Shown here: positions 24,001 through 42,000 of the stretch, piece after piece
How the letters are laid out: every line of letters begins with the position of its first letter
Position numbering within the stretch: the stretch's first letter is position 1
Source of the DNA: an uncultured Spirochaetota bacterium
GTDB taxonomy: Bacteria; Spirochaetota; Brevinematia; Brevinematales; JAOACQ01
NCBI GenBank assembly: GCA_963768055.1
Contig: CAVYGN010000002.1
Span: forward strand, 1,536,001-1,600,000
Reading direction: 5' to 3'
DNA: 64,000 nt
Made by a program: the position numbers

Positions 24001-27000
24001 ATTTGTTGAATAATGCAGAGTTTGATTTTGATGAAATTGATATTGTCAACAATCGTCCCATAAATGTCTGGCTACATGTAAAGTGCCGCAAATACACTGA
24101 TCCCGAAGATGAAGATTACGAAGATGTGTTGAATGAAGCCGAGGTGGTAATCGCGGGGGACTATGATGGCAATCCAACACCAGGCTTGATAGTTTAAAAA
24201 TTGTCTTAGCGGTACTTTTGTCGGAAATGCCGATAGTACCCCTAGTAGTATTGCTGCAGTAAGTAGAGATAACTCGTCCTGCTATCATTATGCTCTCGTT
24301 ATTATTACATTTTTCATAAACCAGAGATCCCATTAATAACCCGAGTTTCTTATCAAATTCTACCCTGTTGTTATTCCTTTTAAGATTGATCTTTTCGGTT
24401 AAATGAGCTCCCGCAGTAACGAGAAGCTGAATCGTTGAAGTAACTGTTAAATTATTAGCATTCATATTATTTAACCTCTCCCAAGTCTTAAGTCTGTATT
24501 ATTTAGGTAAATTAAACTTTGCACCTGGTTTGTAGAATTTAACCCTTTCCCTTTTGCTAAAATCATAATCTTTATTATTCCAAATTGTTAAAACTTTTTT
24601 ATCTTCGTCGATGAAGGCATCCAGTGTGCAATCTTTGTTCTTGTCAATCCCCATTATTTTTGCGGCTTCCGCAGGTATCGTAATTCTCGCGGATAAACCA
24701 AGAATACCTTTTCTTGATTGCACTTTAATTTTGTATGCCGGCATTTCAGACTCCTCATTTTCTATATTATAAGGCTTGAAATATTGAGTGACGGGGATAA
24801 ACTCGGCTACACCAATTCTCAGTTGCAATACGCTTCGCTTATGTTTGATATACCTACCAATGAGGGCATACCGGATTCTATATTGAAATGAATATCTCCT
24901 TCTTTCCAAAATACAATGATATCAAACAAATTCTATTGACTAATTTTTCCGATAATGTATAATAGTTGTAAGGATAAAAGGGATTTCATAAATGCCTTTA
25001 AAAAACCTCGAAAACATTTCCCCGGAACAGGCCGGATTTATCCGCGCAGAGTAGTCAGCAGATAAGATCAACGGATTTTATGTTTATTAACAACAATCTT
25101 ATTAATAGCGCTAAAGCTTTAAATGGATCTGAAAAATCTGGGAATGCAGGTCATTTTTTGTCTATCTGTTTTGGTTTACAATACGGCCTACTTTATCTTT
25201 CTCTTACTTGTCCGAACACCACCCCCTGTCTCACTATTTTATAGATAAGGCGCCCATTAGTAATACCGTTTTGTAATATGAATTTTGCGGATTCTTCATT
25301 CGTAACAACAAAATTCCATGGCGGCAAATATGGCCAAATACTATCTGCGGGGGAAAACGAAGTTTGAAGGCAGACTGTATGAACCTTATTCGTATGTTCA
25401 AGCCCTTCCTCCTCTATAAGATGCTTTTTTAATGCCGTAAACAATTCCTTATTCCCAAATTCATAATAATCCCCCCCCCTGATAATGCTTCATTGCTTCA
25501 GCCAGGTTATTCCCTGCAAAACGATTGAAATAGCTGTAATGATATGGATATAAGGAAACGATCTCATAAATATACAAGGCTGAACTAGCGATGAATAATC
25601 CTAAAAATATTATTTTTAACCAGGTAATCTTATAGATTTTCTCTAATATAAGAGCTGTTACAATGCCGCATATTATTATCAAAGGTACCATAGCAAATAT
25701 CATCTGACGTATTTCATTGTAAAGATGGGATTTTTGAATTATTGGATATAAACTTGTAAATAAAAAACTCAAAATTAGTACTACCCAGGCGGTAAATTTA
25801 CAAATATCTATCGATAAAGTCTTTGCTTTAAATTTCCCCGTTATCCAAAATGAAAATATAATAAGACTTATAATGGAAATAACAAATATCCATTCAGGAA
25901 ATTTGACTAGATAATATGACGGAATATACATAGGATCACCCAAGCCTCTGATATGTATAAAATATTGAAGGGATTCTGGTATAGCGCTTATAGGATATTT
26001 TTGTAGCCATGGCCAGAATAGCGCCATAACTATAAAAGCACTGATAATTAAAACAGGAATTCGCTTAATAATATTTACCTGCCATTTAAAGACCGTATGA
26101 AATTGAATATTTTCAAAAACGAGGCGATAAACCGAATAAAATACCCATGCAATAATGAAATAAAAAAACAGTATAAGTCCTCCGATCCTTATGCCGGCGG
26201 TTATGCCACAATAAAGCCCGACCTGTAGAGCGTCTTTAAAGCGGAAATCCGGAAACTTGAAAATTGTTTTTATAATACTGTAAATCCCCCATATAAATGT
26301 AGCTGCAAATGGAATATCTTTAGAATTATTGAACATATGGCCCAGATAAGTAGGGAAAAGAAATAACAGCAATGCTGAAAAAAAGCCCCCGGCATTACCA
26401 GCAAATTTTTTACCGATCATAAAAGCGCCTATTATTCCCCATAAACCGAAAAGGGCATTGATAAGATGCCGTGATTCATAAGTACCGAAAGGCAGGACCG
26501 ATACGCCAATTTCAGCGATAGCTTCAAAAAAACCGCCATAATAGTACAAATCATAAAAATGCTGGGATGAATGATCCTGGAAAAAACTTGTGTAAAAACT
26601 TACGATTTGTTGTCCGTACTTATGTTGAAATCCCTCATCCCAATTAGTCCCGTATATCTGGAATGTAAATAATATCCATGCCAGAATGAGCGCGAATAAT
26701 AATAACGAGAGATATAAATAGAATTTATCAAAATGTTTCATCATTTCCTCAGAATTAATACTTGGAATATTATTTTACCTGTTACTCATTGAAAATGCCA
26801 TTATTATATTAAAAAGGATAGCAGGGCGGCGCATGGGTATGATGCTACGCGCTGGCCGGATTACCTCCGGCGGGGCAATATTAATAAAGCTTATTGTAGG
26901 CCCCATGGGAGCATTCGTGTTATGTACTGAAAAGTAACAAGCCGTTTGGCTGTCAATTAATCAGAAATATCAATGCTTTCAACATACATAAAGTAATTAA

Positions 27001-39000: not shown

Positions 39001-42000
39001 GACAGCAGAAGATTTCAGGGCGCTTACGCCGCTTATTTATAATCACATTAATCCTTATGGGCATTTTAACCTGGATATGAATGAAAGAATTCCTATAGAG
39101 ACTGATATTGCTGCTTAATACAATCTACTTTTCAGTACATAACACGAATGCTCCCATGGGGCCTACAAGAGTATAATCAACAACCCCCTTTCTAAGCCCA
39201 AAATATTTGGGTGAATGGCGGGAATTGATAGTATTAATCCGGGTCTCATATTTCTGACCATCGCTGCTGGAATGAATAACTTCATCAATATCGTAATACC
39301 TGAAGATCGGCAGATTGGCTGTAGCGTTGCTGACACGGTCGTTTGCTTCTTTCAGGGTTTCCAGGCGAATGAAATTATCTGACGCGGCAGCAAGCGTGGA
39401 ATAGCTGATATCTGAAGTTTCCCCCATCGTCCCCAATCCCATGTTGGTTCCCCAGGCAATTATGCAGGCAACAAGGATACGGTTGTCCCCAACTTGCTTT
39501 GTATAGCGCCCCAGGACGTGCTCAAATACTTCAAGAAACTGGCAATGCTGGTTAACAAAATGCATGACGCTCCCAAGTTCAATCTGCTTTAACGCGTCAA
39601 AAAACGGGTTGTTTATAGATTCATCGTCATCATCATTGGAATATTGAAGCACCCAACGGCTTTGTTTTCCACGTTTATTGATTTTGAAATGTTCATTTTC
39701 TCCGGATGCGATACGCCGGTTGACCTCTGCAATTCGGGATTCAAGCTTTTGTTCAAGTTCTGCCAAATGTTCCCTGACAGGTCGATCAAAGATAGTAAGG
39801 CTAATATCGGATATCAGTTTTTCTTTATTCTGCCATTGCTGGTCGTCTATCAGATCATCTTCAAGGCTCCGGAACCGTACGCTCTCACGGCAAAAGATAT
39901 CGCCGGCTTCCAGACTGTTTCGCAAAAGGCGATAAACCTGAAATTCATAGCGGTCCGGCGATACAATATTTTGATGGTAGATATAACGCTTTACACTGTC
40001 AGAAATATACTGGGTTGGCAAAGTTTCTGAAGAATATTGTCCAAGTGGCTTGTTTTTGATAAACGCCAGTTTTATGAAGTCAATAGCCTCAATCAGTGAA
40101 TCATTCGTCAAGGGGGACGCAAAATCAACCATTAGTAATATTTGCCGCAGGTGTCGTTTAAACTGCAGGGACAGTTTATCTATGTGCTCCCATTGCAAGG
40201 CAGTTTCATCGAATTTTGCATCGGTAGTAATTTGATAGGCTAAAGTCTCAAGCTTTTGCTGCTCCAGGATAGCAAATGCTATTTCCTGGACATAATGGAA
40301 AGGTGTGTCAGCCGCAATACTATCATCGGTGAATATCTTAAGCACCTGGCCGGCCTTTTTCAAGTTCTGGTTGTTTTCCACCAAATACTCATATACCCGT
40401 TCCTTAGCCGCGAATTTTGAAGCATCTACGTAACTCCTGACATTGTAAATAAGGGTGTTAATAAGGTTGTCATGCACCTGCTGAAAACGATGATAGATGT
40501 AACATAATAAATAGACATAGACCAGCCACTCATTAAGTCTCTTTAGCCTAAACACAGAGTAATAGTCTATCAATGAGGCATAGTATTTAATGCTTTCGTT
40601 AGAAATGCCCAATTCCGGCAATAGCTTTTGAATAAGCCGATACAAAGGCTGTATTCGTTTGCCCCGGTCAATCTCACGGTTGATTTCGCCAAGGGTAAAA
40701 TCTCTTGGTTCGTGTTTAAGTTGCGTGATCTCATATAAACCGGTTGAATCTTCTAACAGCCGTTTCATATCTTCAATATCCGATTGCTTTAGGTTATTCC
40801 GCATTATTGTGATTAAACGGGCTTGTTCATAAGTGATTGCCCTTCCTATCATTACCCTCATGTATCTGTAGCCGGGAACCACGATACGTTGACTGTTTAA
40901 ATAATTCATGATTTCACGGAAAATATAGACCGGTTTACTGCAGAGCGCTGCTGCCCTACGCGCTTTTTCCTCCAGATTCTTCCTTTCTTCAGAATCACAA
41001 TCACGATAATTGAACAGTTTAAGAATAAAATTCTGCTGTTTTAGCCGAGTATCTTTATCAATTGGACTAAAATCAATGATTTCATTGTTGCTGAAATGTT
41101 GTCTCAGCACATACTGGGAATCCTCTGCAACTTCATTGAAATTGAATGTAAAAAATAAATGCTTTGCTTTAAAATACCCGAGTTGTAGAACGAAATAAGC
41201 CCGGGATCTGATGGAATGTAACATCTGTAACAACTCTTTCTCTGGTTGAGTTAGGGAAAAATAACTATGCCTCTCCTCATCCGTAAAACAGGGTCTGCCA
41301 TAAATGGCTTCTACTTCATCTTCTCCAAGTATTTTCAATAGTTTTTGTTCGGCGTCTGGTCCGTTTTGAATATTAATCGTATCCGTATTTATATTACCCT
41401 CTCTACCAGATAACGCTAATTCAGCCCCAACTTCAAATTTGCCCTCTGTACGGCCTCCGTTATCTGCTTGTTGGAGAATTTAACATAGATTAATGTAGAA
41501 GCGAGGCTACGGTGGCCCAAAAAGTCCTTCAACCGCACCACGTCGATCTCCCCGGATTCCAGAAGCTGGATCGCCCTGGTATGCCTCCATGTATGTGGTT
41601 TTGCCTTATCCGGTTCAATTCCAAGGTCCCGGCAATGCCGGAGCATGGATTGTCTCACGACCTGGCGGGAGACGGCCTTTTGTCCGGGGCCTTGAGCAAG
41701 GATATAATCCGAGGGGGATAGTCCTTTTTCCAGCTGGTGCTTGAGTATCATGGCTTTCAGCTTGTCTGATATCACAAGGACCCGGAATGCCGAACGGCGC
41801 TGCTTAAGAGTTGTGACTTTGATTTTGTTTGACTTGAAATCCATATCCTTGATCCGTATTTCCCGCGCCTCCTGGATCCTGCAGGCTGTCTCGAAAAGCA
41901 GGAGGTATACAAGCTGATACCAGGCGTTTACAGAAGCAAGCAGCCTTTCAGCCTCATCCATCGAGAAATACTTGATGGTTTCCCCGTCATACCAGTCGCC

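Follow-up and report, generated by a model that had tools for sequence, protein, structure and literature searches.

A complete type I-C CRISPR–Cas locus enclosed by perfect Tn3-type ends in an uncultured Spirochaetota bacterium

The window, a 64,000-nucleotide stretch of one contig, contains a 12,275-bp segment that is bounded by perfect inverted repeats and holds a Tn3-family transposase gene (tnpA), a TnpI-type recombinase gene (tnpI) and a whole type I-C CRISPR–Cas locus (Table 1), as described in an earlier survey of this genome; these genes are intact and exceed curated cut-offs. All seven cas genes lie above the cut-offs for their subtype and form, together with the array, a complete type I-C set. 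The array has the composition that the survey gave, and its spacers have no other match in the genome, the fetched loci, phages or plasmids, apart from short chance matches of at most 18 nt in the genome and loci. Plasmid matches considered as spacer targets cover most of the array and lie in other I-C-type arrays, and are taken to reflect repeat similarity. The repeats resemble those in arrays of I-C-bearing plasmids and match the Rfam model CRISPR-DR9 weakly (21.5 bits, under the gathering score of 45). The cas3 gene has lost its own promoter region. A scan for promoters and terminators returned counts equal to those in shuffled sequence, and no evidential use was made of it. A second I-C locus, 17 kb away in the window, is devoid of effector genes and lies beside Tn3 debris.

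Table 1 Features of the 12.27-kb segment and of the element adjoining its right end (window positions)
Feature	Position	Strand	Remarks
5 bp outside left end, TTGTA	26894..26898	.	Inverse complement of the 5 bp outside right end; relatives' ends stop at the equivalent of 26899
Outer left terminal inverted repeat	26899..26936	+	38 bp, identical to right repeat
DNA just inside left end	26937..27085	.	About 148 bp; no match to tnpI 3' end, tnpI–tnpA spacer or fetched loci
IS21-family end remnant	27086..27166	+	About 80 bp; body missing; abuts oldest repeat
CRISPR array	27185..27480	-	Five identical 32-nt repeats and four 34-nt spacers; read on minus strand
Presumed leader	27481..27658	-	Inferred from its position between cas2 and first repeat
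cas2	27659..27946	-	Profile match
cas1 (type I-C)	27950..28981	-	TIGR03640 (cas1_DVULG), 497.7 bits, cut-off 385
cas4	28981..29628	-	Profile match
cas7 (Csd2)	29634..30497	-	TIGR02589, 303.7 bits, cut-off 182
cas8c (Csd1)	30494..32344	-	TIGR01863, 306.8 bits, cut-off 219
cas5c	32341..33066	-	TIGR01876, 138.9 bits, cut-off 85
cas3 (HD nuclease and helicase)	33081..35255	-	Likely start, ATG at 35255; ribosome-binding site touches inner end
Inner divergent left-type end	35274..35311	+	30/38 identical to outer left end
tnpI, tyrosine recombinase	35316..35981	-	221 aa; profile match; same direction as cas operon; likely start 35981
tnpI–tnpA divergent spacer	35982..36148	.	Candidate resolution site (function inferred); repeated motifs
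tnpA, Tn3-family transposase	36149..39118	+	989 aa, full length; profile match; likely start 36149
Right terminal inverted repeat	39126..39163	-	38 bp
Truncated transposase gene of second Tn3-family element (B)	39164..41338	-	Cut exactly at right end
tnpI_B	41416..42060	-	Rest of element B (41416..42943), which also has a repeat-rich region
ORF of element B	42238..42747	-	Rest of element B
End of element B	42905..42943	-	Rest of element B

The transposase matches NF033527 with 903 bits (cut-off 500) and covers PF01526 from position 1 to 389 of 389, that is, the full DDE domain. Its residues 9–975 align with the Tn4430 transposase (E = 9e-72), and its length is the same as in 160 relatives (80 from 561 genome loci and 80 from 567 metagenome loci, the best-matching in each set). 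The nearest relatives, with 54–77% identity, occur in Clostridia, Bacilli and cyanobacteria, and one plasmid relative (56.5% identical) is annotated as ISNpu13 family. By comparison, the best full-length match in 400 other genomes of the host phylum reaches 37%, with 52% on one 216-aa fragment. These relationships point to a foreign origin of the transposase. The intact recombinase is of the Phage_integrase type and has relatives of 86%, 84% and 73% identity among metagenome proteins; none was found in viral contigs, plasmids gave no tblastn match at 1e-20, and a close relative adjoins the transposase gene in none of the 160 loci. In the spacer between the two genes, a motif of 9–10 nt occurs three times (35997–36005, 36086–36096 and 36111–36120), two copies forming an inverted pair 15 nt apart. 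With the whole element as query, megablast against plasmids returned only a 630-bp transposase stretch (72.5%) in four Bacillus plasmids.

The survey had taken the terminal repeats to be 43 bp long. Pairing of the arms 26894–26936 and 39126–39168 is indeed perfect (43/43 complementary), but homology with relatives limits the ends to the 38 bp usual for Tn3-type repeats (38/38 identical, aligning with relatives' ends), and the extra 5 bp on each side are flank. These flanks, TTGTA on the left and TACAA on the right, are inverse complements and not a direct repeat. A 5-bp target duplication is hence absent with 38-bp ends and equally with 43-bp ends (GCTTA against GAGTA), in agreement with the survey. 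Simple insertion, intramolecular transposition of the deletion or inversion type and recombination between copies were considered as sources of the inverse flanks and rejected, each needing a coincidence for identical outward flanks. Both termini read GGCC, compared with CCCC in 14 of the 17 end pairs read in relatives. Directly beyond the 38-bp end, a 5-bp duplication is present in seven of the 16 relatives whose locus includes both flanks and an end pair; one of the seven measures 12.9 kb, about 9 kb of it cargo. The size and end structure of the present segment therefore fit active members, and we consider the element, as judged from its sequence, probably transposition-competent. Even in active relatives the two ends are 92–100% identical.

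Genome-wide, the element is single-copy, and its end repeat occurs at the two outer ends, at C2:1161478-1161517 (92.5% of 40 nt) and at the inner copy (88.9% of 27 nt), with a further weak 23-nt match at C2:1678537-1678559. A search for the end pattern with up to three mismatches in 35 genomes of the order found it only in G000 (three matches) and G002 (one match), and the end core gave no match in viral contigs.

The inner copy is the degenerate third repeat that the survey had placed between cas3 and the recombinase gene; its presence stands, and its extent is corrected to that in Table 1. Its inner 12 nt are identical to those of the outer left end, and five of the eight mismatches fall at positions 6–11. 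On this pattern it looks like an end of another subtype and not simply a decayed copy. The three ends have the right orientations for a Tn1721-like layout, although the inner one is only 30/38 identical. The survey's proposal that a core transposon of about 3.9 kb captured the locus by way of a more distant end thus stands in part: a three-end structure with an outer pair enclosing the I-C locus is present, whereas capture through a distant end does not account for the perfect left end, because the inner end is of another subtype.

The closest native I-C operon comes from a genome of the same family (G008:C27, 68–83% nucleotide identity); the match to it runs up to 35270 and breaks off there, 3–4 bp short of the inner end's outer tip. 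Among 5.8 billion clusters, the nearest relative of Cas3 likewise belongs to that operon (74%), followed by sequences of at most 58%. An origin of the cas locus in the host's own family, and locally, is suggested by these comparisons. Since the closest relatives of the transposase are in other phyla, the cas genes would have been picked up locally, and a core element of about 3.9 kb landing beside an I-C locus would fit both the inner junction and the Cas3 result.

CRISPR–Cas had been described as the only cargo, which does not hold: an IS21 end remnant and about 148 bp of other DNA also lie inside the segment. The remnant, 67 nt of which match at 85% a 2535-bp element present in the genome in 10 near-identical copies, is related to the host's own IS and fits a local origin. 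Inside the outer left end there is no transposon-like DNA, that is, no match to the core or its relatives and no second-copy remnant, and alignment scores of this DNA against the resolution-site regions of the present element and of element B stay within the range of shuffles.

At the right end, the truncated transposase gene noted in the survey is cut exactly at 39164. There, the similarity of its product to full-length homologs stops, and bases 39164–39168 (TACAA) encode its residues Leu724–Val725. Three full-length homologs, used as queries, did not recover the missing C-terminal part in the genome. Given this junction inside the B transposase and a missing part that is nowhere in the genome, the two junctions stem from at least two events; the precise joining of the right end to a foreign transposase gene also implies that this end was used by a transposase at least once. 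Beyond element B, synteny with G002:C111 begins only at 44003. On the left, homologs of the flanking gene in G003 lose similarity before the junction, and no empty site could be reconstructed. The two nearby Tn3-family elements are as the survey described them (contig positions 1555407-1560247, with a TAGTA duplication, a resolvase and a Gp49/HTH pair, and 1594824-1602197, with HigBA).

Clusters at 90% identity for TnpA, TnpI, Cas3, Cas1, Cas7 and Cas8c contain the sequences of this genome and one further member, a short transposase tail from an ENA contig (90% identical over 173 aa). Among the 160 transposase relatives (the same best 80 and best 80 loci), none carries I-C cas genes inside its ends; one locus, L077, was examined as a candidate and rejected, its cas1 and cas2 being 31–38% identical and outside its end pair. 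The genome consists of two contigs and may have been assembled from a metagenome. Parts of the element occur at low depth (shares 0.05–0.21) in four DNA runs, all of one freshwater-sediment study, and no RNA run is listed among the runs with the element; the four runs are probably the source population and not independent support. One contig alone shows a joint of 29565 to 33670, its shorter side covering 28 nt, and this joint was disregarded.

On balance, we favour the reading that the segment is a three-ended derivative of a Tn3-family transposon enclosing a complete I-C locus native to the host family. Insertion of the core of about 3.9 kb would have taken place roughly 18 bp upstream of the start of cas3 and would have separated the operon from its own promoter. 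As the outer third of the inner end has diverged, this end would be a poor partner, and the transposase would instead act on the perfect outer pair, and replicative transposition would copy the unit as a whole, with TnpI resolving the cointegrate at the repeat-bearing tnpI–tnpA spacer. The cas operon may be read from the transposon side, being co-directional with tnpI with no terminator-like site between. Within this reading, CRISPR–Cas serves as passive defence cargo without guiding the transposon. Movement of the 12.3-kb unit is possible, and no fewer than two distinct events lie behind the site as it now stands. That the unit is a transposon that has already moved is not borne out, in view of the missing duplication, the single copy, the two-event junctions and the lack of 90% identical proteins elsewhere. 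We put forward only tentatively, and with less confidence than the reading above, that the 12.3-kb unit is a working Tn3-family transposon by which an entire adaptive immune system moves, from effector and Cas3 to adaptation genes and array, with the cas operon wired to the transposon's tnpI promoter, and that the host, having lost the effector genes of its own I-C locus 17 kb away, may have been re-armed by it.

A rather unlikely but serious alternative is that the bracket is accidental, a chromosomal I-C locus having come to lie in a Tn3-rich plastic zone between a 3.9-kb element and a stray solo end that stems from a rearrangement or from another copy, so that the span was never mobile. The absent target duplication and the separate origins of the junctions agree with this, as does the setting: besides an IS1595 and IS21 scars, four Tn3-family elements or their wrecks lie in the window, modules are commonly shuffled in the genus, and solo ends of the same type are scattered over this genome and its relatives (C2:1161454-1161517, G002:C111, G008:C3 and G003:C1). 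The element is, moreover, single-copy and unseen elsewhere in the protein clusters and the loci of transposase relatives. However, the other solo ends are 80–92% identical and come with remnants of a transposase tail, whereas the left end is 38/38 identical, correctly oriented and has a clean inner border; perfect identity, set against the range in active relatives, speaks for a recent origin shared with the right end. In Tn3-family biology, an intact transposase acts on any correctly oriented perfect end pair, and by analogy the transposase here would act on this one.

The eight differences between the inner and right ends, clustered and subtype-like rather than resembling random decay, could also mean that the left arm (inner end and tnpI) and the right arm (tnpA and right end, with the outer left end as its partner) derive from two elements joined at the resolution site, trapping the cas genes between two left ends. 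The lack of a close tnpI beside any of the 160 transposase relatives, although TnpI relatives exist among metagenome proteins, is in line with such a recombination, and in G003 and G004 the partners of TnpI_B-like recombinases are transposases of another clade. No single recombination was found that yields the observed order and flanks, and we regard this course as improbable; it is an account of origin compatible with the three-ended derivative, not a true alternative to it. Least credible, and very improbable, are a mis-join of the assembly at the left junction and a CRISPR-guided transposon in which the I-C system directs Tn3 insertion in the manner of Tn7-like elements. Apart from the two-contig genome with its thin public read support, nothing speaks for either. 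Short contigs from the four runs match at 100% with no loose end at either junction, and one spans the right junction; cas3, cas4, cas1 and cas2 are kept, no spacer matches the genome or the flanks, and the 160 transposase relatives carry no I-C cas genes inside their ends.

Documented vehicles for the spread of CRISPR–Cas are few, namely plasmids, integrative and conjugative elements (ICEs), some phages and the Tn7-like elements that repurposed these systems, and few elements carry passenger genes between chromosomes and plasmids as effectively as Tn3-family transposons. In full-text searches no Tn3-family element with CRISPR–Cas cargo was found, in line with the survey. If the unit works, it would be the first CRISPR–Cas cargo reported for this family and, if true, would offer chromosomal CRISPR–Cas loci a direct route onto plasmids. 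A Tn3 element enclosing a I-C system with its adaptation module would show capture in a simple form, by insertion beside the locus and subsequent gain of a distal end, and would allow the carriage of defence genes by a replicative transposon, perhaps with expression from it, to be put to the test. Should the unit turn out to be immobile, the locus still illustrates how transposons rewire and break CRISPR loci, one having lost its promoter to an insertion and the second in the window being without effector genes.

The layout resembles that of Tn1721/Tn1722, for which PMC5736529 describes three 38-bp ends, with a complete 'minor' transposon beside cargo closed by the third end, such that the core or the whole could move. 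Tn1721 has tet as cargo and a truncated copy of the transposase at its third end, and transposition with 5-bp duplications is known for each of the two forms. By contrast, the present segment carries CRISPR–Cas, has no second-copy remnant inside its outer end and an inner end matching at 30 of 38 positions, and no duplication or movement is seen. Tn4430 and other TnpI-type Tn3-family transposons are similar in several respects: the transposase here aligns over its full length with the solved one of Tn4430, a tyrosine recombinase replaces the serine resolvase, the ends measure 38 bp, and relatives show 5-bp duplications. The two genes point in the same direction in Tn4430, an order also found in the neighbouring element B, whereas they diverge here; the ends here finish in GGCC, and the nearest transposases are only 54–77% identical.

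Tn7-like CRISPR-associated transposons are not known to carry the interference nuclease, mostly lack the adaptation genes, and are targeted through TniQ and guide RNAs. The present segment is like them in combining a transposon and CRISPR–Cas genes within one set of ends, but it differs in its Tn3-type transposase, its intact cas3 and cas1-2-4 and its lack of spacer matches to the flanks, and nothing suggests guidance. According to the abstract of PMC11406308, all co-options of CRISPR–Cas by transposons so far involve Tn7 relatives. Complete I-C systems are also described, in PMC7660259, on pKLC102-like ICEs of Pseudomonas aeruginosa and on megaplasmids, which thereby resemble the present case in joining a complete I-C system to a mobile element. 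Those carriers are conjugative elements or plasmids, whereas the carrier here is a possibly mobile transposon derivative bounded by inverted repeats.

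The outer inverted repeats of the CRISPR-bearing element match at 43 of 43 positions (window 26894–26936 against 39126–39168), as the survey's finding had it, but by homology with relatives the ends are 38 bp long and the outermost five bases are flank. We compared loci with transposase relatives of 54–77% identity, the best 80 of 561 from genomes and the best 80 of 567 from metagenomes. An end pair was detected in 17 of these 80 genome loci, one lacking a left flank, and seven of the 16 testable relatives show a perfect 5-bp direct repeat right after a 38-bp end finishing in CCCC. 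In L015, L016, L021 and L042, the four relatives whose right ends are closest to that of the element, the end also stops at this 38-bp position, each time with a different flank. Because the relatives' duplications and flanks begin there, we place the probable true ends of the element at that position. Its termini are GGCC, which is also the terminus of two relatives, L056 and L057. Genome-wide, the outer-end sequence recurs at the places named by the survey, namely a 40-nt copy of 92.5% identity (C2:1161478–1161517) and an inner copy by cas3, and additionally as a weak 23-nt match. The 40-nt copy belongs to a relic comprising a right end and 25 bp of transposase tail, flanked by TAGTA; another relic, on C1, is an internal transposase fragment of a related element (81% DNA identity).

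The type I-C locus proved as complete as the survey described: all open frames between the arms are intact and score above curated cut-offs, and the array comprises four 34-nt spacers between five identical 32-nt repeats; it is read on the minus strand, which puts the leader next to cas2. The locus is not the only cargo, as had been claimed, since a remnant of about 80 bp from one IS21-family end also lies between the left end and the array. Its 2535-bp relatives occur in 10 copies in the host genome, with related copies in sister genomes; the near-identity of the 10 copies suggests a recent burst. We read the old end of the array as lost in an IS-linked deletion, because all five repeats are perfect and the IS21 remnant adjoins them.

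The degenerate third repeat copy between cas3 and the recombinase gene was recovered as an inner end, which shares 30 of 38 positions with the outer left end, including all of the inner 12 nt; of the eight mismatches, five are at positions 6–11. The tnpI stop codon is 3 bp away from this inner end and the cas3 start codon 18 bp. The native I-C operon of a same-family genome (G008:C27) shares 68–83% DNA identity over cas3, cas5, cas8c and cas7, and this similarity ends at window 35270, within 3–4 bp of the inner end's tip. A break of this kind is expected if an insertion separated the cas3 ribosome-binding site from its promoter. As the cas operon and tnpI are co-directional and the scan reported no terminator-like site between them, transcription of the cas operon from the transposon side is plausible.

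Features of the element, its surroundings and its relatives (window positions unless a contig or locus is named)
Feature	Position	Strand	Remarks
Left and right ends, 38 bp by homology	26899–26936; 39126–39163
Inner end	35274–35311
cas2, cas1 (I-C type), cas4, cas7/Csd2, cas8c/Csd1, cas5c, cas3, then Phage_integrase-type recombinase		minus	Probable starts: cas3 35255, tnpI 35981 (sequence and gene calls on record)
Tn3-family transposase	Probable start of tnpA 36149 (same basis)	plus	NF033527, 903 bits (cut-off 500)
Element B	39164–42943
Element B transposase gene, truncated	39164–41338	minus	Tn3-family
Complete Tn3-family element	19412–24242		Duplication TAGTA; 991-aa transposase, serine resolvase, Gp49-like/HTH pair
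Tandem repeat, 117 bp	17138–17508		3.2 copies, 83% identity; overlaps 128-aa ORF without family match
ArsR/methyltransferase/metal-resistance/DsrE cluster	44003–49586		Syntenic with G002:C111:6508–10815 (L091)
IS1595-family transposase gene, DUF6338 gene downstream	45015–46633
Second, degraded I-C locus	55650–58483		Array, then cas2, cas1, cas4
IS21-family insertion sequence, 2535 bp	G000:C2:6864–9398 (L195) and nine other places		IstA-like 513 aa, IstB 248 aa
Right-end relic with transposase tail	G000:C2:1161454–1161517
Internal transposase relic	C1:649105–649307
Solo right-end relic, another genus	G008:C3:7726–7767 (L090)
Tn3-family relative, 12.9 kb, Clostridia MAG	L009:148–13059		Duplication TAGTA; 2319-aa subtilase (also by PADLOC subtilase model), 444-aa protein without family match, serine resolvase

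Outside the 38-bp ends, the five flanking bases read TTGTA at the left and TACAA at the right; these are inverse complements, and each reads TACAA outward. The reported absence of a 5-bp target duplication thus holds at the revised ends, and one simple Tn3-type insertion is ruled out as the source of the flanks, because its product would be a direct repeat. No one simple insertion accounts for both junctions. On the right, the element cuts element B, a second Tn3-family element ordered as end, repeat region, ORF, tnpI and tnpA, with direct and inverted copies of a 14–15-nt motif at 42769–42878. Ten full-length homologs of its transposase (66–75% identity) align through Thr723-Leu724-Val725, of which T723 and V725 are invariant, and stop where the right end begins; the tblastn match of the closest homolog ends at 39164, in agreement with the truncated transposase gene that the survey saw abutting this end. 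The C-terminal quarter of the gene was found by tblastn nowhere in the genome. On this alignment the right five bases (39164–39168) are target DNA, part of the Leu724-Val725 codons of the element B transposase gene. Since homology to element B stops exactly where the right end begins, that end is joined precisely to foreign DNA, the mark of transposase action.

The TACAA coincidence fits no standard transposition product. The solo right-end relic in another genus likewise has TACAA outside its end, followed by unrelated DNA; other ends of the outer-end type have TTATA or TAGTA. The flanks could come from two separate events under a strong target preference specific to the end, or the left end could have arisen by inverted copying of the right junction. 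A further option is that the ends are truly 43 bp in this sub-lineage, at the price of matching the Leu-Val codons by a chance of 1 in 64.

The nearest Cas3 relative among 5.8 billion protein clusters is 74% identical, the same identity as for G008:C27, and the next are at most 58% identical, some labelled Spirochaetota. By comparison, the transposase relatives at 54–77% identity belong to Clostridia, Bacilli and cyanobacteria (best 80 of 561 genome loci). Within the host phylum, 400 further genomes gave a best full-length match of 37% and one 216-aa fragment of 52%. Because the nearest relatives are a same-family operon for the one and members of other phyla for the other, the cas locus is, judged from sequence, local and the transposase imported. 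TnpI has metagenome relatives of 86%, 84% and 73% identity, and within the sampled phylum it is confined to the host's genus (4 of 401 genomes). Beside the transposase relatives at the 160 loci (best 80 of 561 and best 80 of 567), no TnpI relative exceeds 28% identity. Recombinases 70–79% identical to TnpI_B, the element B recombinase, pair with another transposase clade in the sister genomes G003 (three copies) and G004. The pairing of tnpI with tnpA could itself have arisen by recombination.

We lean towards reading the span as a three-ended derivative, formed by capture of a local locus and competent to transpose. The outer pair of ends is perfect and in the correct orientation, the recombinase is intact, the transposase has its full length, the tnpI–tnpA spacer carries repeats that are a candidate site for TnpI, and relatives such as L009 transpose with cargo of up to about 9 kb. 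Against mobility stand the missing target duplication and the single copy. An accidental bracket, a span that was never a mobile unit, we consider less likely. The DNA inside the left end shows no likeness to transposon DNA. Plasmids, viral contigs and the order's 35 genomes lack the element, solo ends excepted. For six of its proteins, the 90% clusters contain the host genome's own sequences and one short transposase-tail fragment from an ENA contig (90% over 173 aa), and the thin public reads probably come from the source population. A recombinant history of the element, to which we give little weight, is compatible with the transposition-competent, local-capture reading. The survey's proposal that a core captured the I-C locus through a more distant end gains from the stop of G008:C27 homology at the inner end, but lacks a duplication and a second copy.

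Core chromosome makes up the first 17 kb of the window, and the remainder is a plastic zone with a Tn3-family element flanked by TAGTA, element B, IS1595, a metal-resistance cluster and a second I-C remnant. The first of these, reported nearby by the survey with its resolvase and Gp49/HTH pair, was found as described; its end type recurs at 58951–58996. The second I-C array has a repeat differing from that of the first and one duplicated spacer, and the cas7, cas8c, cas5 and cas3 partners of its locus are missing genome-wide. This locus abuts Tn3 debris, comprising an end (58810–58844) and a C-type end with a 33-aa transposase tail (58951–59126). The metal-resistance cluster is flanked by end-like sequences (42904–42943 and 49913–49942), and its counterpart on G002:C111, in a sister genome, has a solo end of the CRISPR-bearing element's type after it. 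A 370-bp stretch at about 44631–45000 (the end of the searched segment) has a 99% copy at C1:362926–363295.

The CRISPR-bearing element is not a CRISPR-associated transposon, because cas3 and the adaptation genes are kept and, as the survey had noted, the spacers have no other match in the genome. CRISPR-Cas cargo in a Tn3-family transposon was not found in the full-text literature searched, outside which most subscription journals lie. According to the respective sources, pKLC102-like ICEs carry type I-C systems (PMC7660259), CRISPR co-options by transposons so far all concern Tn7 relatives (PMC11406308), two anti-I-C anti-CRISPRs are linked with Tn3-family transposases (PMC7913775), and some Tn3-like elements have Xer-like resolvases (PMC8987985). 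For the three-ended arrangement within the Tn3 family, Tn1721/Tn1722 provides a precedent, as described in PMC5736529.
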